A stretch of DNA of 64,000 nucleotides from an uncultured delta proteobacterium (GTDB lineage: Bacteria > Myxococcota > Myxococcia > Myxococcales > Myxococcaceae). The stretch lies in NCBI GenBank assembly GCA_963771175.1, contig CAVYSY010000051.1, positions 32,001-96,000 of the forward strand, read 5' to 3'. Shown in pieces: positions 48,090 to 59,631 of the stretch. The first letter of the stretch is position 1. Every line of letters begins with the position of its first letter. A program made the position numbers and the translations under genes. The notes below the pieces were generated by a model. That model was not told the origin of the DNA. It ran no database searches and worked only from the letters and a program-made list of their open reading frames with translations.

Positions 48090-49817
48090 GTGCGAAACCT
48101 ACTCAGGCCAGTCCTTCCACTGCTCGCCTCCTCGGTCCTCCTCGCCGCCGCCGCGCCCGCTCCGGACGCGCGCGTGGCGCTGGTGGACGCGATGGCGGAG
48201 GAGCTCCAGCGCAACCAGCAGCAGCTCAAGCTGCAGAACCACGAGCCTCCGTACTTCATGGGCTACCAGCTCAAGGACACGGAGCAGCACGGCATCGTCG
48301 CCCGTTACGGGGCGCTCTTCCAGGATGACTCGTTCCGCGAGCGAAAGCTGTACGTGGACGTGCGGGTGGGCTCGTACGACTTCGACAACTCGGGCCCCGA
48401 GGAGTACGAGTTCTTCGGCGGTGGCCGCGGCAGCAGCTACGTCGCCAACAAGGACGCGCCCATCGACGACGCGGCCCTGGCGCTGCGCACCTCGCTGTGG
48501 CTGGTGACGGACGAGAAGTACAAGGCCGCGCTCTCTCAGTTCCTCAAGAAGAAGGGTGAGAACGTCTACGCGGTGGAGGACCCGAAGCAGCCGCCGTCCT
48601 TCTCCAAGGAGAAGCCGACTCAGTACGTGCAGAAGCCGGTGGTCTTCCCGTTCGACCACGAGCGCTGGAGGAAGGTGGCGCGCGAGGTGTCCGCGCGCTT
48701 CAAGGCGCACCCCGAGATCTTCGACTCGGAGGTGCGGGTGACGGCGGACAAGGTGACGCGCCTCTTCGTGTCCACCGAGGGCAGCCGCATCGTGTCGGAA
48801 GAGACGATGTACGGGTTGCACGTGATGGCGGTGACGCGGGCGGACGACGGGCAGCTCCTGGACAACTCGCGCAACTACTACGCGCCCACCGAGGCGGGGT
48901 TGCCGGACGACAAGAAGCTGGCCGAGGCCACCACGAAGATCGTCGAGGAACTGCTGGCGCTGAGGAAGGCACCGGCCATCGACCCGTACACGGGGCCGGC
49001 CATCCTCGCGCCGGAGGCGGCGGGCGTGCTCTTCCACGAGACGATGGGGCACCGGCTGGAGGGAGACCGGCAGGATGGGGAAGGGGAGGGGAAGACCTTC
49101 CGGGGCCAGGTGGGCAAGCAGGTGCTGCCGGCGTTCCTCAGCCTCATCGACGACCCGACCCTGCGCACGCTGCAGGGCGAGCCGCTCAACGGGTTCTACG
49201 AGTACGACGAGGAGGGCGTGAAGGGGCAGCGGACGCCGCTGGTGGAGAAGGGCGTGCTGAAGGGCTACCTGCTGTCGAGGCGGCCGGTGGAGGGCTTCCT
49301 GCAGTCCAACGGGCACGGGCGCAGCCAGGGCACGCGCAAGCCGGTGGCGCGCATGGCCAACCTCATCGTCGAGTCGACGAAGCAGGTGGATGACGTGGAG
49401 CTGAAGAAGCAGCTCATCGCCGAGGCGAAGCGCCAGGGCAAGCCCTACGGGCTCATCATCCGGGACATCACGGGCGGCAACACCAACACGTCGAGCTACG
49501 GCTACCAGGCGTTCAAGGGCGTGCCGCGGATGGTGTACCGGGTGGACGTGAAGACGGGACAGGAGACGCTGGTGCGCGGGGTGGAGATCGTCGGCACGCC
49601 GCTGTCGTCGATCAACCGCATCATGTCCACGGGCCGCAAGTTGGGCATCTTCAACGGGTACTGCGGGGCGGAGAGCGGGAACGTGCCGGTGTCCACGGTG
49701 GCGCCGGCGGTGCTGCTGCAGGAGATCGAGCTGCAGCGGGCGATGGAGGGCAAGGACCGGCCGCCCATCCTGATGAGCCCGGCCGCGAGCACCACCGCGA
49801 GCGGTGACGTGAAGTAG
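48090..49817 (+). CDS. TldD/PmbA-family protease with signal peptide
   Basis: Sec-type N-terminus; FHETMGH, DEEG, SNGHGR, GYCGAESG. Confidence 0.85.
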   Translation: MRNLLRPVLPLLASSVLLAAAAPAPDARVALVDAMAEELQRNQQQLKLQNHEPPYFMGYQLKDTEQHGIVARYGALFQDDSFRERKLYVDVRVGSYDFDNSGPEEYEFFGGGRGSSYVANKDAPIDDAALALRTSLWLVTDEKYKAALSQFLKKKGENVYAVEDPKQPPSFSKEKPTQYVQKPVVFPFDHERWRKVAREVSARFKAHPEIFDSEVRVTADKVTRLFVSTEGSRIVSEETMYGLHVMAVTRADDGQLLDNSRNYYAPTEAGLPDDKKLAEATTKIVEELLALRKAPAIDPYTGPAILAPEAAGVLFHETMGHRLEGDRQDGEGEGKTFRGQVGKQVLPAFLSLIDDPTLRTLQGEPLNGFYEYDEEGVKGQRTPLVEKGVLKGYLLSRRPVEGFLQSNGHGRSQGTRKPVARMANLIVESTKQVDDVELKKQLIAEAKRQGKPYGLIIRDITGGNTNTSSYGYQAFKGVPRMVYRVDVKTGQETLVRGVEIVGTPLSSINRIMSTGRKLGIFNGYCGAESGNVPVSTVAPAVLLQEIELQRAMEGKDRPPILMSPAASTTASGDVK

Positions 49818-49829
49818 CGCAGCACTCTG

Positions 49830-49856
49830 GGGAGACAGGTCCAAATCCTGTCTCCC
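49830..49856. terminator. Hairpin downstream of the TldD-like gene
   Basis: GGGAGACAGG-7 nt-CCTGTCTCCC. Confidence 0.6.
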
Positions 49857-49940
49857 TGGCCAGCCCAAGCTGCTCGACGTGAGCTTCGAGCTGCTGATGC
49901 TCGAGCGCGTCGCGGACGCTCATTGATTCACGAGAGGCTC

Positions 49941-50930
49941 ATGTCACGCAGGACGCTCCGCCGCACCGTTTCCCGACTGCTGCTCTTCGCCCCGGCGCTT
50001 CCCCTCCTCGCCTGCTCGCGGCAGTCCTCCTACCGCATGAGTTGCTACGAGGTACTCTATGAGGAGAGGATCACGATCTCCTGGCGCGCCCCTCCCGATG
50101 GCGGCACTCATGAGCTGGACACCTGCCAGCACTACTGCATGAATTCGTACAGTGGGCAGAGGGCTGGTCCAGAGTGGCTGAAGGATTGCAGCCTGCAGAT
50201 GCGTGATGGTGGCACCAGCGCGGTAGTGACGTGTCAGGTCGTTGGGGAACTCTGTGAAGGCCGCCGTCCCGAGGGGCTGGTGAGCCGGGGTGTGGTGGAG
50301 GGCCGGGTGTCCGCGCTCGGAGCCCTCTTCGCCCGGATGGCCCACTTGGAGGCTGCCTCCGTGCCGGCCTTCGAGCGCCTCGCCGAGGAACTCGCCAATC
50401 ATGGGGCCCCCGCCCGGCTGGTGCGCGCCGCCCGCCGCTCCGCCTCGGACGAGGTACGCCACATGCGCGCCATGCGGGCCCTCGCCCAGCGTTACGGCGC
50501 TCCCATTCCTCCTCTGCAGGTGGAGCCCTTTGGCCCTCGTCCCCTGGCCGCGCTCGCGCTGGAGAATGCCGTGGAGGGCTGTGTGCGCGAGACGTTCGGT
50601 GCTCTCGTGGCGGGGTGGCAGGCTCGCTGCGCGCTCGATCCGGAGGTGCGCCGGGCCCTGGGCCACATCGCCCCGGACGAGCTGCGGCATGCGGAGCTCT
50701 CGTGGGCCATCGACGCTTGGGCCTCGCGCCGCCTCTCCGCATCGGAACGGGAGCACCTCCGAGAAGCCCGGCACGAAGCGCTGCGCACCCTGGCCCGCTC
50801 CGTGGCGCAGGACAAGCCCGTGGAGGCGTTCATCCGGTGGGCGGGGATGCCCTCGCCGGAAGCGGCACGCATGCTCGTGCGTGAGCTGACGGAGCTGGTT
50901 CTCGACCTGGAGCAACAGGCCGGGACTTGA
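49941..50930 (+). CDS. Ferritin-like-domain lipoprotein
   Basis: Lipobox LLAC; EGRRPEGL; HLEAASV, DEVRH, ENAVEGCVRE, DELRH diiron-type pattern. Confidence 0.8.
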   Translation: MSRRTLRRTVSRLLLFAPALPLLACSRQSSYRMSCYEVLYEERITISWRAPPDGGTHELDTCQHYCMNSYSGQRAGPEWLKDCSLQMRDGGTSAVVTCQVVGELCEGRRPEGLVSRGVVEGRVSALGALFARMAHLEAASVPAFERLAEELANHGAPARLVRAARRSASDEVRHMRAMRALAQRYGAPIPPLQVEPFGPRPLAALALENAVEGCVRETFGALVAGWQARCALDPEVRRALGHIAPDELRHAELSWAIDAWASRRLSASEREHLREARHEALRTLARSVAQDKPVEAFIRWAGMPSPEAARMLVRELTELVLDLEQQAGT

Positions 50931-51418
50931 TGTCCCCCTGGCAGTCGAGCCAAAGGGACATCAGGAGCGCACGCTCATGATGAAGCGACCATTCGTCGCC
51001 AGGGGGCGTATGCGGAACGGACCCCGGACGAGCAGGTCTTCCTCTATGCCACCGAATACGAGGACGACGTCCTGACCCACAAGAAGATCGAGGAAGGTGA
51101 CGTCGTTCTCTTCGTCACGCTCCCCAGGTTGGCGGAGGGGAGACTCCGCGCTGGGGGAAAGCGCTCCACCGCGCAGGTCGCCGTCTGGCGCTTCTCGGAG
51201 TCTTCGCCCCGTGATGGTTCTGACTGGCGCCAGAGTGATGGCACCGTGGAGGTGGTGATGCTCTCTCGGACGAAGGTCCACCTCCGGGTGGACGCGAAGT
51301 TCCCAGGCGGTGGGTCCGTCTCTGGCGAGCTCGTCGCGCCAATTCGCGGCGAGGATTGACTCAGGCGCAGTGGAGGGCGGTGCCGCGCGGTACGGGCGCT
51401 GTTGCAGTCCCATCAGAT

Positions 51419-52939
51419 TCAGCGGGCTCCCAGACGGTGGAGCAGAATCGTCCTCAGATAGTCGCGAGTACGTATCGCCTCGTCCTGATAGTTCCTGCCC
51501 TGTGTGCGTTCTCCGTGGACGATTTCGCACCTGCTTTCGTAGGACTCCCTCACCGCCCGCTGCAGGTTGTCGGCGGGTCCCACCCCAAGAGTCGCCAGCT
51601 CCTTGCTGATTCTCTCCGCGCACTTCGTGGTGAGAGAGCCCTCTCCTCGGCGCGTGAAGAGCCCCTCGAGTGCTACCCAGCAGTCTATCAGCCAGTCTTT
51701 TGGAGAGCCTCGGCGGCAGGACGAGAACCAGCGACGCAGGGCGATGGTCAGGCCTCCGTCCTGCGAGGCTCCTGCCTGACCTGTCTCAGCGGAGAAAAGA
51801 TCGTAGATTCGCGGAACCAATGCCTGCAAACGTTTGGCGTCATCAACGCTCAACGAGACATGGCCAGGCATGAATGCTCTATTGAAAGAGGCCCCGCCGA
51901 TGCGGGTCCTGAATCCCTCCCGGAGCGATCCTTCCCGGAGTTTCTCCGCGAAAGTGGGCTCGATGATGTATCCGATGGATGGCTCGCCCATGAGCAGGTT
52001 GAGAGCTACCAGCGCCACAAATTCTGGGAGTTCCAGCTTCAGCTCGTCATGCAGGTCCCTCTCCCACATGATGGTCTGAAAGCCCGGCTCTTCATATTCG
52101 AGCACACTCCGAAGACCAAGGACATCGAGCCCACGCAGCGGTATTTCATTGCACAGCGGGTCCGGGTTGAGCCAACGGTCGAGCTCCATCGCCGACACAG
52201 CCCTCAGCTTGAGGCGCGGCAGGAGTTCCAAAGCGGGGCCATTCAGCCACAGCTTGAGCAGGGGCGTCAGGCGGTATTGGCATTGCCGCCCACGCGCGAT
52301 GCGCTGCTTCAGTCGGATGAACAGGTAGTGCGCCACCCGCTCATCCAAGTTCAGTACCTGGGGGGCGAGCCATAGATAATCGCGGACGTACTCGCCAACA
52401 AAGCCATTCCACGCCCTCACGCGCATCTCGGCGAGGTTCGCGGGTGGATGTGCTTCATCTTCTGTTATGAGGAGACAGTTCCACTCTGGAGGCGCCTTCG
52501 ACATCAGCAGGGCCAGCGGATCCAGCGAGCGCAGTTGCTCTTCCTGGTTGTTTCTCACGAAAAGCTCAAACAGGTGTCGCGCATCATGGCACTGCATTGT
52601 CAAGATGCTGGGGCCACCGCTAGGCGAGACGCCAATCACCTCATTCCTCGACAGGACCTCTGATTGCCGTAGCCAGGCGCGCAAAAGCCGCTGCTCCTCG
52701 TCCAGGGCGTGCTCCTCCAATGAAGGCGAGAACAGACTGCCATCGGCCAGCCGCTTATGAAGCGGCTTCGGACCATGGGTCAGGAAGAAGTGGCATACCT
52801 CCCGGATGACGTTCTGGAGCGCTCCCTCCAGTTGCTCCAGGGGCGTTCCGGTCAAGGGCTTGGCCGTGAGGTGGCGAAGGTTCCAGAGTCCCTCTCCAAG
52901 AAGTCTTCCGAACAGCATCTTGCACTCCTCATGGAACAT
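51419..52939 (-). CDS. HEPN-domain protein (ApeA-like C-terminal HEPN)
   Basis: WVALEGLF ... YESRCEIVHG (RxxxxH); visibly more AT-rich than neighbouring genes. Confidence 0.75.
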   Translation of the reverse strand: MFHEECKMLFGRLLGEGLWNLRHLTAKPLTGTPLEQLEGALQNVIREVCHFFLTHGPKPLHKRLADGSLFSPSLEEHALDEEQRLLRAWLRQSEVLSRNEVIGVSPSGGPSILTMQCHDARHLFELFVRNNQEEQLRSLDPLALLMSKAPPEWNCLLITEDEAHPPANLAEMRVRAWNGFVGEYVRDYLWLAPQVLNLDERVAHYLFIRLKQRIARGRQCQYRLTPLLKLWLNGPALELLPRLKLRAVSAMELDRWLNPDPLCNEIPLRGLDVLGLRSVLEYEEPGFQTIMWERDLHDELKLELPEFVALVALNLLMGEPSIGYIIEPTFAEKLREGSLREGFRTRIGGASFNRAFMPGHVSLSVDDAKRLQALVPRIYDLFSAETGQAGASQDGGLTIALRRWFSSCRRGSPKDWLIDCWVALEGLFTRRGEGSLTTKCAERISKELATLGVGPADNLQRAVRESYESRCEIVHGERTQGRNYQDEAIRTRDYLRTILLHRLGAR

Positions 52940-53003
52940 TGGCGGCGATTGTAGCCGGACGCGGGCGTTTGCTCCGGAAACATGGAGGAATGAGGAAGAG
53001 GAA

Positions 53004-53068
53004 GGGGCCGACAAGGATTGAACGAGATGGACATGTGGAAGATGTAGTCCCGTTCGCATTCGGCCTCC
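53004..53068 (-). ncRNA. Putative minimal Y RNA-like hairpin, copy B
   Basis: GGAGGCCGAATGCGAACGGGACTACATCTTCCACATGTCCATCTCGTTCAATCCTTGTCGGCCCC; stem may extend to about 52993-53075. Confidence 0.7.
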
Positions 53069-53074
53069 CTCCTC

Positions 53075-53146
53075 CGCCGAGAGCCGGCAAGGAGTGAGTG
53101 AGACGGACAGTTGGAATGTAGTCACACTCGCATCCGGCCCCCGGCG
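53075..53146 (-). ncRNA. Putative minimal Y RNA-like hairpin, copy A
   Basis: CGCCGGGGGCCGGATGCGAGTGTGACTACATTCCAACTGTCCGTCTCACTCACTCCTTGCCGGCTCTCGGCG; begins 4 nt after the TROVE stop; covaries with copy B. Confidence 0.7.
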
Positions 53147-53150
53147 TTCC

Positions 53151-54707
53151 TCAAAGCTCGGTGCTCTCGATGGACTCCACCCACCGGCGGGCATCCAACC
53201 CGCCATTGGCGAAGTCCGACATCAGCTCGAACACCACATCCGAAAAACCTCCCACGTTGAAGATGTCCTCTCGCTCCGGTGCCTGGGTCGTCCCGTACGG
53301 CTGGAGATCGATGCACACCAGCCGCGCGCGCGGGTTGCGGCGCCGGAAGAGCTCCCACTGTCGCAGCGTCTCCGTCCCCACTCCCGCCCGCGCATCCACC
53401 CAGGACTCGTTGTCCGACACGAACACCACCAGCTCCCCCTTCGCGTGGCGCGCGTTCAGCCACGCCAGTGGCGCGCTGCAGTTCGTCCCGCCCCCTCCCA
53501 CCGACGCCATTCGCTGGGCGTTGGCCATGATGCTGTCGCGCACCGGGAGCGTCAGCGGCACCACGTCATGATCGAACGGCACCACCTGCGCGCCCGGGTT
53601 GCGTCGCAACATGGCCGCCGCCAGGAGCGCGGCCACGTCCACGCAGCGCACCGCCGTCGTCGCCCCCTCGCGATGCCCCGTCACCGGCGACTGCATGGAG
53701 CCCGAGACGTCCACGCAGACGTAGGCCCGGCCCTCCACTCGCGGCACGTTCTCGATGGCCACCTCCATGGCCGCCTGCAACGCGTCACGCACCCGGGCAG
53801 GCACCTCGCGACCCACCGCGCGCCACGCCGCCAGGAGCTGGTACGGGAACACCCGCGCCCGCCGCACCTCCGCCGGATCCGCCAGCCGCCGGGCGATCCG
53901 CTTCTCCATCCCCGGCTCGTTGAAAACGCCGTGCCGGGCGAAGGTGTTGAGGTTCATCCGCGTCATGTGCCAGGAGGCCTCCTGGGCGATGTGCACCCAC
54001 GCCTCCGTCTTCAGGGGCAGGGAAGTGAGGAGCTGGAAGGGCACCTCCGGCACCTCACGCGAGGTGGGGCGGGCCTTGAAGTCCTCGTAGTGGGCCACCA
54101 GCTCCGGCAGCGCCTCGCGCGCGTGGGGCCGACCCAGCAGGTAGCCATAGAAGGATTCACGTCGAGCCGTCTTCGGCTTGGGGTGCACCATGTGGATGAT
54201 GTCCGCCAGCGAGGGGGACTGGCCCACCGACTCACGAAAGAGCGTGTCCTCGTCGCGCGCGTCCAGCCACTCGCACACCAGCCGCTTGGGGAGGCTCCCC
54301 AGCGAGCGGCGGGCCACGAGCCCCGAGCGCATGATCTGCACGAAGGTGCGCAGCATGCGGCCGGTGTCGATGACGCGCGGGAAGACGCGCGGCAGCAGCT
54401 CGGGTCCGAGCACCGAGAGCACCGCGCACAGCAGCGCCGGGGTGTCCTTCATGTACCCGCGCTGGCGGCAGTACAGGGCCGTGCGAGCCACGAACTCCGG
54501 CTCCACCTGGCCACTCAGCGCGAGAAGCTGGTCGAGCTGCACCTCGGCCGCGGCATAGAAGGTGCCGTTGAGGCAGCCGGTGGCGGCGTACTGGGCCAGC
54601 GCGTGCCGGGGCGTGAAGGCAAAGGCAGGGGCGCCCTCCTCGTTGAGGGCATCGGGCGGGGGCAGTACCGGGCCGCGAGTGGTCTGGAAGAGGGACAGGT
54701 TCGCCAT
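53151..54707 (-). CDS. rsr: Ro60/TROVE + vWA ribonucleoprotein (Rsr)
   Basis: NEEGAPAF, TGCLNGTFY, MKDTPALL, MTRMNLNT, RVFPYQLL, MIDAS DVSGSM, GGTNCS, VSDNE, GFSD. Confidence 0.92.
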   Translation of the reverse strand: MANLSLFQTTRGPVLPPPDALNEEGAPAFAFTPRHALAQYAATGCLNGTFYAAAEVQLDQLLALSGQVEPEFVARTALYCRQRGYMKDTPALLCAVLSVLGPELLPRVFPRVIDTGRMLRTFVQIMRSGLVARRSLGSLPKRLVCEWLDARDEDTLFRESVGQSPSLADIIHMVHPKPKTARRESFYGYLLGRPHAREALPELVAHYEDFKARPTSREVPEVPFQLLTSLPLKTEAWVHIAQEASWHMTRMNLNTFARHGVFNEPGMEKRIARRLADPAEVRRARVFPYQLLAAWRAVGREVPARVRDALQAAMEVAIENVPRVEGRAYVCVDVSGSMQSPVTGHREGATTAVRCVDVAALLAAAMLRRNPGAQVVPFDHDVVPLTLPVRDSIMANAQRMASVGGGGTNCSAPLAWLNARHAKGELVVFVSDNESWVDARAGVGTETLRQWELFRRRNPRARLVCIDLQPYGTTQAPEREDIFNVGGFSDVVFELMSDFANGGLDARRWVESIESTEL

Positions 54708-54719
54708 GCCCCTGCCTTG

Positions 54720-54735
54720 AGCATCCGGCGTGCCA
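54720..54735 (-). promoter_or_regulatory. Sigma-54 (-24/-12) promoter of rsr
   Basis: TGGCACGCCGGATGCT, exact GG-N10-GC spacing. Confidence 0.7.
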
Positions 54736-54821
54736 TTCCGTCCGCCAGGGTGCCACCCAGCGCAAACCCGCGTCTTTCCAGGGACTTCCCCGGCCTGGCT
54801 CGGGAGCAGGCTCCTGGAGGC

Positions 54822-54839
54822 CTTATTCATCAGGATAAA
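54822..54839. promoter_or_regulatory. Enhancer-like inverted repeat (candidate RtcR-type UAS)
   Basis: TTATTC-N4-GGATAA, AT-rich, about 90-100 bp upstream of the -24 box. Confidence 0.55.
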
Positions 54840-54958
54840 GTCTTAGCCTTGGGAATAGGAACGGCCACCGGAAGGCAGGGACGAGCCTGAGCGCACTGGC
54901 GTAGGGGAGGGCGGTGGGGGGCGCCTGCCCCCACGCCAGGAGCAGGCCAGGACGTGGA

Positions 54959-55834
54959 TTACCGCTCCACGCCCAGCAATGCCGCGAACAGCTCTCGGGG
55001 ATCGATGCTTGGGGGAATCCCGGAGACACCGCCATCGTTCACCTCGACCACGGCCCAACGGCCGTCTTCGAGCATCGCGACATCCATGGTGAAGAAGCGC
55101 GCGTCGATTCTGCGTGCGAGTCGCTCGAAGGCGGAGAAATCCGGTACGTCGACATCGAAGTCATCGGAGGACTCCGCCGCCAGGAGCCGCCCGTGCCCGA
55201 AGAACAGCCGGAATTCGAGGTGCGCGGGCCCGGTCCGCGTCCGTCCCCGGACCTTGAATGGCAGGATCCGCCTGACGACGAACCCACGCTCGAAGCGCTC
55301 TCCTCGCTCCTCGAGCAGCGCGCCGCAGATGCGCTCGAAGTCCTGTCGCGAGGCTCCGGCCGGAACGAAGCACGCCTCGGCCCAACGCTCCTTCGCCGAC
55401 TTCACGTGGTCCTTCACGAGCCATGGCGGCGAGCCGAGCGCTTGAGCGGCATGCCACGCCTCCGACGGGTCCGTGCCCTCGGTCCAGACGGAGCGTGCGG
55501 TGTACCCCTTCAGCTGCGGGTACCAGTTCGGCAGGTAGTGGGCCGCCGAGTACTGCGCGGGGGTGGTCATCAGCTCGTGGCTAAGCGCCCCGAGCGCCTC
55601 GTCCAGCGCCTCGTACTCTTCGCCCGTGAGCATCCACCCCCGGTACAGCAGCCGGAGGTGGCCCTGTTCGGGAATGGCGGCGCACGCGCGTTCCGCATCG
55701 CCCTCCAACAGGGCGGCCAGATCGATCTGGAAGGTATCTATTCCCAGCGCTTCGGCCGCATCCGCCTCCGTATCGAATGAATCGGACTGATGCGGATTCC
55801 GGCCAAACAGGATGGACGAAGCCAGCGGCATCAT
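54959..55834 (-). CDS. ATP-grasp domain protein (R2K-like)
   Basis: LYRGWML, HYLPNWY, VKDHVKS, EFRLFF, FFTMDVA..VVEVNDGGVSG. Confidence 0.78.
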   Translation of the reverse strand: MMPLASSILFGRNPHQSDSFDTEADAAEALGIDTFQIDLAALLEGDAERACAAIPEQGHLRLLYRGWMLTGEEYEALDEALGALSHELMTTPAQYSAAHYLPNWYPQLKGYTARSVWTEGTDPSEAWHAAQALGSPPWLVKDHVKSAKERWAEACFVPAGASRQDFERICGALLEERGERFERGFVVRRILPFKVRGRTRTGPAHLEFRLFFGHGRLLAAESSDDFDVDVPDFSAFERLARRIDARFFTMDVAMLEDGRWAVVEVNDGGVSGIPPSIDPRELFAALLGVER

Positions 55835-56055
55835 GAACCTCTCGTCAGGGGTGGGGCTCCCCCAGACGACGGCTCGAAACGAGGCCTGACAAAGGACTCA
55901 GTGGCTTGTTCGCGGTGGTGTGGCCGGTGTCGCATGGCGATTTCCGGCACTCGACGGGAATGACGCGGTCTGCCCCGAAAACCTGACGAAATCGTTTGCG
56001 TGCGCCGTGGATTCTCGGGGGCCGAAGTGTCCAGGCCCGCCTACCATGGAGCGGC

Positions 56056-56538
56056 TCAATCCACTTCGGGATGGCGCCGGAGGTTCCGCCTCCTTCGCAT
56101 CCACCACCAGGCCGGCAGGAGGCCTGTCAGCAACGGGGGCAGCCAGCTCGGGACGCCCAGCCAGAGCGACCATGGCTCCGCCTTGTCCTGGTGCCCCTTG
56201 CGGATGAGCCAGAAGCCCATGCGGTTCCAGCCGGACTGGGGTGTCGGCTTCCGCGGCGCTCGAAAGAAGGCGCCCCCCAGGTCGAAGCGCTCCAGGGGTT
56301 TCGATTTGGGATGTCTGAATTCGTTAGCCCCCACCATGAAGGAGCCGTCTCCGGGCCACCGGAGGCGATAGTGGGTCTGGGTCACGAAGGCATCATCGAC
56401 GCGATCCGCGTCGATGCCGAAGGAGGTGTAGAGCCTGTAACCGAACGGCCACATCACCAGGAAGGCCAGGCTCGCGAGCAACGAGGCTCCGCAGAGGAGG
56501 TCGAATGCGGAGGGACGGAAGGGCGCTGGTCTCTTCAT
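56056..56538 (-). CDS. Hypothetical membrane protein
   Basis: N- and C-terminal hydrophobic helices with a basic tail. Confidence 0.65.
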   Translation of the reverse strand: MKRPAPFRPSAFDLLCGASLLASLAFLVMWPFGYRLYTSFGIDADRVDDAFVTQTHYRLRWPGDGSFMVGANEFRHPKSKPLERFDLGGAFFRAPRKPTPQSGWNRMGFWLIRKGHQDKAEPWSLWLGVPSWLPPLLTGLLPAWWWMRRRRNLRRHPEVD

Positions 56539-56729
56539 GGGATGCTCGTGTGGCTTCCACCGGGAGGATACTCCATCGCCTTGGACGTCCTGGCGATGGA
56601 CCACCTTTGAGCCGTCGGCGACCTGCTGCAAGTGGCGTCGGGCCTTCTCGATGAGGGCCCGCATCCGGCATCCCCACTTCGAATCGCTGAGCCGCTGCCT
56701 TAGCATCCCTCCACCCTCAAGGAGGAGCA

Positions 56730-57742
56730 ATGCTCGTTCGGTCTTCACTGGTGGCAGGTCTGCTCGCGGGAGCGCTCGTCGCTTTCGCCCCACAGGCCCA
56801 TGCCGCCTGCTCGTACTTCGCCGCGCTGGATCGCGATGTCACCCAGCCCTCACAGCGCGCACTCATCACCTGGGATCCAGAGACGAAGTCCGAGTCCTTC
56901 ACCGTGCAGCCCGTCTTCCAGGGCAATGCCGAGGACTTCGGCATGGTCATCCCCACGCCCGCCCAGCCCAAGCTGAAGGAGGCCCCTCGCGACATCTTCA
57001 AGGACCTGGCGCTCTACACCGTGCTCGAGCCCAGGCCCTGTACGCGTCCCATGAAGAAGTACTCCAGCGCCTTCCCGTCCGCGGCTCGAGAGGCCCCGGT
57101 GATGAAGAAGAGCACGGTGCGGGTGCTGGAGGCGGGCGTGGTCGGCTCGCTCGACTACAAGATCATCACCGCGGAGAAGGCCTCGGACCTGTTCGAGTGG
57201 CTGAAGGAGAACAAGTACAGCTACTCCGGCGACGAGGCGACGCTCGACTTCTACGTGAAGAAGAAGTGGTTCTTCACCGTGATGAAGATCGACACCAAGC
57301 AGATGAAGCATGACCCGACGGCACCTTCGCCGGCGAGGTGACGCCCACGCGCTTCCAGTTCACCAGCGAGAAGCTCGTCTACCCGCTGAAGATCACCCCG
57401 TTGAGCGTGAAGGACAAGACCGAGGCGCTCTTCTACGTGCAGGCCCCTCGGAAGATCGCCTTGCCCCAGTCGAAGCTGGAGTACGCGAAGCGGCTGAAGG
57501 GAGCGGACCTCGACAAGCTGGACAAGGGCCTGGTGCCCATCCCCCAGTCCTCGCAGACCATGGGGGAGGCTCAGCAACACGACTTCAAGGGGCTGAAGGG
57601 ATGGCTGAAGAAGGGCGAGTACCTCACGAAGGTGCGGCGCGTCTTCCGCAAGGAGGAGATGACCGATGATCTCGAGCTGGCCTTCGCCAACGACAACGAG
57701 GAGTACACCTCGTACGAGGACTGCGGCGGAGTTCCCCCGTGA
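56730..57742 (+). CDS. DUF2330-like secreted protein (frameshift near 57315)
   Basis: AGGAGG RBS, signal peptide ending AHAAC; FGMVIPTP, LFEWLKEN, FYVKKKWFFTVMK, YPLKIT. Confidence 0.75.
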
Positions 57743-59631
57743 GGCTCGCGCTGCTCGCGGCGCTCCTCCCGACGCTCGCTTCCGCCCAGCTCTCGGTGCG
57801 TCCGGGCAGCACGCGCGATCACCCGCATGACGTGCCCTGGGATGTCTCGGGGCGCTCGCTGAAGGCCCCGCGCCTGCGCGCCCTGCACGCCCCCGTCGAC
57901 GTGCAGGGCAGCTCCATCTGGCTCATCCGGAACGATCCGCTGCTCGCCTATGCGATAGGCCGCGACCTCAACCTGCGTGACTGGCAGCTTCGGGACGGCG
58001 TGTTCGGCGAGCCGGGACGGCTCGTGGGCTTCACCCGGCCACGCCTCATGGGCGGTGGAGGCGGAGGCACCCTGCCTCGCGATGACTCCGGCTCGTGCGC
58101 CACCTGCCACAACGTCCCCTTCGGCGAGCCGGGTGCTGGCCCCACCATTCCCAAGGACGCGGGCACCGGCCGCAACACGCCCCACCTCTTCGGTGGGGGC
58201 CTCCAGGAGATGATTGGCGAGCACATCCGCGCCCGCATTCTCGCCTCGTGCGACGCCAACGGTGATGGCCGCATCACCCCCGCCGAAGCCAAGGGGAAGC
58301 GGGCCACCGTCCACACGCGGGGCTCGGGCGGGGTGGCGCTCGACTTCGGCCCCTGTGGCGACGAGACGGGAGAGGGGGTACCGGACATCGAGCCGCAGGT
58401 GCGGGCGTACTACCTGGATGGCGAGGGCCAGTGGATGGCCTGGGCCACTTCGCTGAAGACGCCCGGCGTCGCCGCCTGGGCCCCCGAGCCACAGGTCTTC
58501 GGGCACGGCCAGGCGGACGGGGCGCTCACTTCCACGCTCCGCGCCTTCTTCGTCCAGGCCGCGGACGTCCACACCGGACTGCAGGCGTACGATCCACTCC
58601 TGGTGGATGACCCGGACAAGGATGGCCTCTCCGGGACGAGTCCGAGTGGCATGGTGCAGACGATGACCGTGCGGCCGCGCGACCGCGGGCGGGTGTTGAC
58701 CGCTGCCGGCGTCTCGCGGGACGACCCCGACCGGGACGGCGCGCTCGAGGAACTCTCGTGTGGCGACGTGGACCTGGCCGAGCACTTCCTCCTGCACGTC
58801 CCACCCCCGGCGGAGAAGCCCACGCCCCGGGCCCGAGAGGGACGCAAGGTGTTCGACCGCATCGGCTGCGCCACCTGCCACGTGGCGGACTGGGAGGTGG
58901 AGCGCGACCGGCGACTCTTCCGCCTGGAGGTCGCACCGGGCTCCTCGGGCACGCTCGAAGGCCGCCTCGTGTGGACCGCGCGAAAGACGGAGACAGGGCT
59001 GGAGCCCGAGGGCAGACCCTTCCTCGCGCGCGGCGTGTACAGCGACTTCCGGCGCCATGACCTCGGGCCGGAGAGCCACGAGCTGGGCTTCGATGGCACG
59101 GTCCTCCGGAAGTTCCGCACCGCGCCGCTGTGGGGTGTGGGCTCCACGGCCCCGTACTTCCACGACGGGGCCTCGCTGTCGCTGGAGGACGCGCTGGAGC
59201 GCCATGGTGGCGAGGCGGCGGAGACGCGGGCCCGCTGGAGGGCTCTGCCCGAGCGCGAGCGCGACGCGCTGCTGGCCTTCCTCAACAGCCTCGTCCTCTA
59301 CGCCATCACCGATCTGCCCGCGGACGTGGATGGGGATGGGAAGGTGGCCGCCGAGTGGAAGGTGGGCGGACAGCCGACGTATGGCCCGGAGCGCTTCAAC
59401 CCCGAGCTGCTGTCCCAGGTGCCCTGTGCGCTGGAGGGGCCGACGCGAGGCTATGGCGGTGAGCCCATCATCAGCCGGGCCTGTCTCAACGTGCCCGCGC
59501 TGTATCGGATGGACCTGAAGGCACGACGGGATGTGGACCAGGACGGCTTTCCCGATGTGCGGGATGATTGTCCGGAGCAGCGTGGCTACCTGGACGGGTG
59601 TCAGGACCCGCCCGGCTACACCGGTGAGTGA
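57739..59631 (+). CDS. Di-heme oxidoreductase (DHOR)-like protein
   Basis: Two CATCH heme-c motifs; RNTPHLFGGG; YSDFRRHDLG; RTAPLWGVG..YFHDG..HGGEA. Confidence 0.85.
   Translation: MRLALLAALLPTLASAQLSVRPGSTRDHPHDVPWDVSGRSLKAPRLRALHAPVDVQGSSIWLIRNDPLLAYAIGRDLNLRDWQLRDGVFGEPGRLVGFTRPRLMGGGGGGTLPRDDSGSCATCHNVPFGEPGAGPTIPKDAGTGRNTPHLFGGGLQEMIGEHIRARILASCDANGDGRITPAEAKGKRATVHTRGSGGVALDFGPCGDETGEGVPDIEPQVRAYYLDGEGQWMAWATSLKTPGVAAWAPEPQVFGHGQADGALTSTLRAFFVQAADVHTGLQAYDPLLVDDPDKDGLSGTSPSGMVQTMTVRPRDRGRVLTAAGVSRDDPDRDGALEELSCGDVDLAEHFLLHVPPPAEKPTPRAREGRKVFDRIGCATCHVADWEVERDRRLFRLEVAPGSSGTLEGRLVWTARKTETGLEPEGRPFLARGVYSDFRRHDLGPESHELGFDGTVLRKFRTAPLWGVGSTAPYFHDGASLSLEDALERHGGEAAETRARWRALPERERDALLAFLNSLVLYAITDLPADVDGDGKVAAEWKVGGQPTYGPERFNPELLSQVPCALEGPTRGYGGEPIISRACLNVPALYRMDLKARRDVDQDGFPDVRDDCPEQRGYLDGCQDPPGYTGE

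Follow-up and report, generated by a model that had tools for sequence, protein, structure and literature searches.

The window, which is the whole 64,000-nucleotide (nt) stretch of DNA analysed here (GC content 69%), comes from an uncultured delta proteobacterium of the family Myxococcaceae and encodes on its minus strand a Ro60/TROVE-family RNA-binding protein of 559 amino acids (rsr, positions 53151–54830). The protein, Rsr, consists of a TROVE ring domain followed by a vWA domain, which is the arrangement that defines the Ro60/Rsr family (Pfam vWA_Ro60, 2.2e-18; TROVE, 6.8e-08). It scores 91 bits over residues 60–544 against the NCBIfam model RNA-bind_Rsr, under the equivalog cut-off of 900 bits. 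Among solved structures, D. radiodurans Rsr (2nvo; E = 1.8e-25, residues 63–543) is the best match, and weaker alignments were obtained with a phage Ro60 homologue and with animal Ro60. rsr is the sole TROVE match in the 9.8-Mb source assembly, which is 82% complete. Its stop codon is immediately followed, on the same strand, by a tandem pair of hairpins, each about 70 nt long, with a gap of 3 nt between them: a proximal candidate short Y RNA (copy 1, 53076–53146, minus strand), at around 5 nt from the stop codon, and a distal one (copy 2, 53000–53072, minus strand), at around 80 nt. Both are delimited by their fold and by the refined covariance model described below, and copy 2 is additionally covered by a sub-threshold Rfam match. 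The initial annotation had placed a tandem element at 52993–53146 and tied it to a TROVE gene. The element and the adjoining Rsr/Ro60 homologue are both there, whereas the covariance-model bounds put the start at 53000, so the original start was about 7 nt generous.

Read on the minus strand, the two copies share the blocks GGCCGRATGCGA, GACTACAT, TGTCCRTCTC and TCCTTGYCGGC, exactly as first quoted, and their pairwise alignment has a mean column identity of 85%. In copy 1, a basal helix and an inner helix flank an AUGC/CUUG internal loop, and the hairpin is capped by a UUCCAAC loop; copy 2 has the same architecture with a CUUCCAC loop. In both folds the inner helix spans about 8 bp and is followed by a short apical stem that closes the 7-nt loop, which is pyrimidine-rich (5/7 and 6/7 positions, respectively). 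The basal helix of each copy could extend to 12–13 bp if the flanks are included, and the internal loop is asymmetric, with 5′ AUGC facing 3′ …CCUUG. The fold energies are −24.2 and −20.2 kcal/mol (z of about −2.6 each), and the 147-nt tandem folds as two hairpins with a z of −5.5, equalled by none of 200 shuffles. The hairpins carry a GNCGAA helix, the AUGC/CUUG loop and a GACUACAU element. Copy 2 contains GCCGAAUG, an exact match to the published GNCGAAN0-1G motif, whereas one base of copy 1 (GCCGGA) does not fit the published GNCGAA motif; this variant, GCCGGAUG, pairs with UUGCCGGC, and the changed base faces a compensating C. Pair 14/90 of the 56-member short-hairpin alignment introduced below is A-U in 47 members and G-C in five. 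Copy 2 also holds a T-loop-like string, GTTCAATCC; it forms the 3′ strand of the inner helix, has no T-stem and is matched by neither the tRNA model nor the YrlA model.

Between the two copies, three pairs are changed on both sides (G-C to A-U twice and U-A to C-G); the remaining differences are one G·U that becomes G-C, one pair gained and one lost. The compensatory exchanges that the initial annotation had read as selection on RNA structure (GCCGG/CCGGC versus GCCGA/TCGGC and GAGTG/CACTC versus GAACG/CGTTC) are therefore real in the pairwise alignment. We built a covariance model from the two window copies alone (R1) and assembled 80 loci that encode relatives of the window Rsr. The 57 R1 matches at E < 1e-3, minus two long ones (141 and 149 nt) and one identical row and plus the two window copies, gave an alignment of 56 rows, A3, which was produced by MAFFT without structural information. 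RNAalifold returned the same two helices from A3, with both-side changes in 14 of the 16 pairs. Standard pairs occupy 93.5% of the pair cells (77.6 ± 0.8% when shuffled), double changes occupy 134 cells (35.5 when shuffled) and the covariation score is 0.449 (0.150 when shuffled); none of 500 shuffles attained the observed value on any of five measures. As a control, sliding the structure by 1–3 columns gave at most 54.9% pairing and a covariation score of at most 0.123. The rows of A3 were chosen by a model that contains the structure, which favours the structure, but the variety of pair types, with five standard types each at pairs 21/73 and 25/70, is not easily accounted for in any other way. 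Compensatory change is visible even between close orthologues, in which the basal helix of the Archangium distal copy has gone from GGCC/GGCC to GATC/GATC. Set against this variability, the AUGC/CUUG internal loop, which had been noted as a conserved ATGC/CCTTG loop, is invariant in the family. In the apical region of the 56 rows, pairs 26/69 and 27/68 (G-C and A-U) are also invariant and ACAU is nearly so; these invariant apical bases, which do not covary, point to sequence-specific recognition by Rsr or by a second protein.

We then asked how far the hairpins and rsr travel together. The two form a conserved cassette (52984–54858, minus strand) that aligns by blastn with the Cystobacter fuscus locus at 90.4% identity over 1,880 nt, and the homology stops 28 nt upstream of the rsr start and around 16 nt past copy 2. 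The flanks are unrelated between close relatives. In the Cystobacter and Archangium loci the neighbours encode a histidine kinase, SnoaL, CinA, a lactonase, a protein kinase and a solute-binding protein, and the ORFs that neighbour rsr in the window were found in none of the other rsr loci. The Rsr proteins themselves are 90% (Cystobacter fuscus) and 88% (Archangium metagenome-assembled genome (MAG)) identical to that of the window, and the remaining relatives about 55–65%. By their record titles, the 80 loci represent at least nine phylum-level groups, including Myxococcota, Acidobacteriota, Verrucomicrobiota, Planctomycetota, several proteobacterial classes, Bdellovibrionales, SAR324, Sumerlaeia, Thermodesulfobacteriota and some MAGs labelled Clostridia. 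Searching these loci with R1 at E ≤ 1 turned up 102 matches, 101 of which are on the rsr strand. With the refined model, R2, there were 176 matches at E ≤ 0.01; every one lies on the rsr strand, and together they cover 74 of the 80 loci. In five of the six R2-negative loci, no more than 93 nt of sequence is available downstream, compared with 1,232 nt in the sixth (L049). Four acidobacterial loci carry extra short hairpins, also found with R2 and on the rsr strand, at 1–2 kb upstream of the rsr start (L023:1876–1957, L045:1010–1086, L053:984–1062 and L070:653–728), which indicates that the short hairpin family is not confined to the rsr 3′ region.

Within the source assembly, R2 has only two strong matches, which are the window copies (copy 2, 65.7 bits, E = 4.5e-14; copy 1, 64.7 bits, E = 8.7e-14), and the next match has an E of 0.57. 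Among 101 genomes of the same family, five are positive for R2, with two copies each directly beside rsr, and a search with the Rsr protein returned the same five; the other 96 have neither rsr nor the hairpin. In two carriers the rsr gene contains in-frame TGA codons (one in G080:C1:11839973–11841637 and two in G044:C131:11120–12718), which may reflect broken genes or sequencing errors; the Y RNA hairpins of both are intact. Given that the homology is limited to rsr and the Y RNAs, that the flanks are unrelated and that the distribution is patchy (5/101), we regard rsr and its Y RNAs as a self-contained module, the scatter of which across the family would fit horizontal movement. The position of the hairpins at the edge of a cassette with flanks that differ between close relatives would also suit a generic element unrelated to Rsr, such as a terminator, a REP-like repeat or the end of a mobile element. 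Such an element is, however, hard to square with the failure to find a T-run or terminator-like site, with only two copies in 9.8 Mb, with invariant unpaired blocks common to YrlA and YrlB and with perfect co-occurrence with rsr across the 101 genomes. Because of the copy number and the co-occurrence, this explanation is largely refuted and we give it almost no credence. A dispersed repeat unlinked to TROVE genes, which the initial annotation had held up as the finding that would overturn it, is likewise not what we see: the genome holds two copies, and the R2 matches are confined to the vicinity of rsr and its strand.

Several features around the cassette deserve separate mention. An ORF that spans the hairpins (51419–53206, minus strand) was rejected as a true N-terminal extension, given that homology ends at the cassette edge and that its GC3 is low. 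The 507-amino-acid ORF directly downstream of the hairpins (51419–52942, minus strand) has a GC content of about 0.60, against 0.69 for the window, and has no match in Pfam, NCBIfam or PADLOC. Near its C terminus is an R-x4-H string (…SRCEIVHG…) resembling the HEPN nuclease motif, and its nearest named neighbours in a protein atlas are HEPN_Apea clusters, with scores of only 0.90 and 0.86 and with the family annotated on 15–17% of their members. Just upstream of rsr lies the gene of an ATP-grasp protein of the R2K clade (54959–55834, minus strand; Pfam R2K_3, 4.4e-36), which is not kept beside rsr in relatives. We rejected a functional link between the hairpins or rsr and these neighbours, as both the ATP-grasp gene and the 507-amino-acid ORF are absent from other rsr loci; when five neighbouring proteins were searched with PADLOC, none was matched at E ≤ 0.1. 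Further away, at 56691–57742 on the plus strand, DUF2330 is split over two consecutive ORFs (profile positions 2–174 and 173–278), which suggests a frameshift or a split gene.

To place the hairpins among known RNAs, we compared them with Rfam. At gathering scores, the whole window yielded only three tRNAs, far from the locus, and no family was reached at the hairpins. Below those scores, the sole match to a relevant family at the hairpins is YrlB (RF02565), which covers copy 2 along the full model (1–78) with 22.8 bits (E = 0.038), short of the 97 bits required for gathering; no YrlB match anywhere in the source assembly is better, and the Archangium distal copy scores 33.3 bits against the same model. 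The YrlA model (RF02553; gathering cut-off, 69 bits) and the eukaryotic Y_RNA model gave no match at the hairpins at E ≤ 10, and the YrlA and tRNA models gave none at E ≤ 1 across positions 49000–58000. The sub-threshold hits that had been anticipated thus materialized for YrlB and not for YrlA or Y_RNA. In the study by Chen et al. (2014; PMC4201824), BLAST searches with YrlB returned S. enterica orthologues alone, so the Rfam YrlB cut-off is probably narrow; the RNA is of a known kind that falls below Rfam thresholds here.

The consensus sequences make the relationship explicit. Three blocks of the YrlB consensus, GaAUGC, GGAUUACAU and UUUGuCg, are found also in the window copies, which have GAAUGC, GGAYUACAU and UUGUCG. 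The YrlA consensus runs from CgaAUGC through a helix to CUAc, continues with the T, acceptor-like and D arms, and ends with a helix and AaAcUuGucGcc. As in YrlA, the basal helix of the window copies contains CGAAUGC, an inner helix and CUAC follow, and the 3′ strand finishes with CUUGUCG, and the copies occupy the same position relative to rsr; the proposed resemblance to the Ro60-binding stem of YrlA is therefore borne out. Unlike YrlA, they lack the three-armed tRNA-like core (T arm and D arm) and have a 7-nt loop instead, also as the initial annotation had described. With the scaffold shared and the core absent, the window RNAs correspond to a YrlA stem in which the loop replaces model positions of about 24–87. 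According to Chen et al. (PMC4201824), the GNCGAAN0-1G motif is common to YrlA and YrlB, is the probable contact for Rsr and is likened to the vertebrate GGUCCGA that is contacted by Ro60.

The short hairpin is also the usual companion of longer forms. The 176 R2 matches divide into 93 short (95 nt or less) and 83 long (104–149 nt) ones, and a T-loop-like string occurs in 65 of the long matches versus a single short one. Short matches are present in 70 loci, usually ahead of the long forms, and in 51 of the 80 loci the two stand in series; rsr is typically followed first by one to three short hairpins and then by one to three tRNA-like Y RNAs. The YrlA cut-off is reached or nearly reached by several of the long matches or by further elements. 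R2 detected short forms only in 19 loci, and several of those that were checked still hold Rfam YrlA or tRNA-like elements (L007, L016, L019, L020, L027, L057, L072, L077 and L079). The first of these comes from a Myxococcales MAG, and its two short hairpins are followed by elements of 117 and 126 nt (L007:4811–4927 and L007:4963–5088) that match the Rfam tRNA model with 45 and 52 bits; unmatched by YrlA and by the hairpin stem model, these elements are possibly divergent tRNA-like Y RNAs. A further arrangement is found in six loci of Pyrinomonadaceae/Acidobacteriota (L034, L021, L048, L062, L043 and L067), in which 11–18 tRNA genes lie on the same strand directly upstream of rsr, within 3 kb, so that the tRNA array, Ro60 and the short and long Y RNAs form an island; ARAGORN also reports a doubtful ‘tmRNA*’ within the array of L048.

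The serial arrangement of short and long forms bears on whether the hairpins are RNAs in their own right. Among sequencing runs, no RNA run was listed as containing positions 52700–55000, and the best DNA runs shared 0.23 of the words of this stretch. Simple scans of positions 52700–55100 detected neither a sigma-70-like promoter nor an intrinsic terminator, a weak test in a GC-rich myxobacterium, and inspection by eye upstream of rsr gave no convincing sigma-54-like site. From the position of the hairpins and the lack of a detectable promoter between them and rsr, the hairpin RNAs are probably co-transcribed with rsr and then excised, as PMC4201824 reports for the Y RNAs of M. smegmatis and Salmonella. 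The same observations, a start 5 nt past the stop codon and no detectable promoter between gene and hairpins, could instead be taken to mean that the hairpins are cis elements of the 3′ end of the rsr mRNA, serving as sites of Rsr autoregulation or as stabilizers against 3′ exonucleases, and given the Rsr-binding scaffold in the hairpins, the protein could bind the message that encodes it. That account is at odds with the 51 loci in which short hairpins are serial with long tRNA-like Y RNAs, and with the four copies located 1–2 kb upstream of rsr, outside any 3′ UTR. It also sits poorly with Salmonella and M. smegmatis, for which PMC4201824 describes long Y RNAs and the short YrlB as free RNAs that are processed out of a precursor and bound by Rsr. 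We therefore consider a purely cis-acting role improbable and favour small RNAs released from the rsr transcript.

In one clade, the tRNA-like partner appears to be missing altogether. L005 (Cystobacter), L006 (Archangium), L009 and L058 gave no YrlA or tRNA-like match at E ≤ 0.05 in the 3 kb to either side. Whole-genome YrlA searches of the source assembly and three close carriers, two of which are single-contig, returned at most 38 bits, always away from rsr; three sub-threshold matches in the source assembly (35.6 bits or less) were rejected as YrlA, as all overlap tRNA genes. In G044, a more distant family member whose Rsr is 59% identical, the two hairpins are directly followed by a 65.9-bit YrlA. 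Taken together, the negative results at the locus and across whole genomes indicate that, within the sensitivity of the Rfam models and with the source assembly 82% complete, the Cystobacter/Archangium-type clade appears to have a pair of short Y RNAs but to lack the tRNA-like form. This is mildly new; most related loci hold short and long forms together.

If a YrlA gene once stood downstream in this clade, the stop in cassette homology about 16 nt past copy 2 is compatible with its loss. The same stop could mark a truncation that removed the downstream YrlA, and together with the apparent absence of YrlA from the clade it raises the question of whether the hairpins are themselves decaying, non-functional remnants of YrlA that have shed the tRNA-like domain. 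Two features of the family count against decay: short copies are the usual state, with 93 matches in 70 loci and mostly before long forms, and their helices covary, with compensatory changes even between close orthologues such as the Archangium distal copy. We accordingly regard remnants as very unlikely, only a little less so than a generic element, and treat the hairpins as maintained short Y RNAs.

The hairpin structure, the selection on that structure, the strict linkage to rsr and the scaffold common to YrlA and YrlB are shown by the present analysis. Considering the stem match to the Rsr-binding stem of YrlA and YrlB together with the 7-nt pyrimidine-rich loop, the elements are best described as short bacterial Y RNAs of the YrlB/Yrn2 type, and we hold it to be highly probable that they are genes for small RNA partners of the adjoining Rsr. 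YrlB of Salmonella Typhimurium (RF02565), YrlB of M. smegmatis and Yrn2 of D. radiodurans are short Rsr-bound hairpins and, like the window copies, neighbours of rsr on the same strand; the window copies also share with this type the GNCGAAN0-1G motif near the 5′ end. They differ from YrlB in that their similarity lies under the Rfam cut-off, and from YrlB systems in that two short copies stand in tandem at a locus with no YrlA. There is no rtcB, rtcA or rtcR nearby, in contrast to the Salmonella operon; the neighbours are the ATP-grasp gene and the ORF of unknown function. The copies also resemble animal Y RNAs (RF00019) and nematode sbRNAs, which are small stem–loops without a tRNA-like module in which the paired 5′ and 3′ ends form the Ro60-binding helix. 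Animal Y RNAs, however, are separate polymerase III genes, whereas the window hairpins sit in a protein-gene cassette.

Bacterial Y RNAs are thought to direct the action of Rsr, either by gating its ring or by tethering it to a nuclease. We infer the following route for the transcription, processing and downstream effect of the window hairpins. They would be co-transcribed with rsr as a 3′ extension of its message, and processing would free two RNAs of about 65–75 nt with their 5′ and 3′ ends paired. As predicted from stem homology, the basal helix with its GNCGAA(U)G motif and the invariant AUGC/CUUG internal loop would be the sites at which Rsr binds each RNA. If it behaves like characterized Y RNAs, the bound RNA may then act as a gate to the Rsr ring or tether the protein to another one such as an exoribonuclease, and the invariant apical element (GAC-U-ACAU … UGU..GUC) would be the obvious candidate for a second contact.

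In the literature searched, with many subscription papers outside its coverage, neither short Y RNAs in Myxococcota nor a YrlB-type family that spans phyla turned up, and YrlA is named once in the introduction of a 2026 preprint on tRNA mimics. To our knowledge, a short bacterial Y RNA that is not tRNA-like has been described from only three species. Our results show a short form with a conserved scaffold accompanying rsr across at least nine phylum-level groups (by record titles), and the family is thus broader than the literature we found records. PMC4201824 also notes that some bacteria with Ro60, notably delta-proteobacteria, have no Y RNA candidate or no strong YrlA candidate and that YrlA RNAs are relatively few in delta-proteobacteria; for one myxobacterial clade, that gap in Y RNA candidates is now filled. 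The gain is one of annotation and of a tidy test case, and it introduces no new principle. As the clade is apparently short-only, it offers a simple system in which to ask what short Y RNAs do. It is conceivable, although we hold it only tentatively and rate it below even chances, that Rsr in the Cystobacter/Archangium-type clade works solely with minimal hairpin Y RNAs. If so, the clade would be a natural system without YrlA, in which the tRNA-like module is dispensable for Rsr function, and the short form with its invariant GAC-U-ACAU would constitute a separate, widespread class of Y RNAs with a distinct protein contact, and not a side product.
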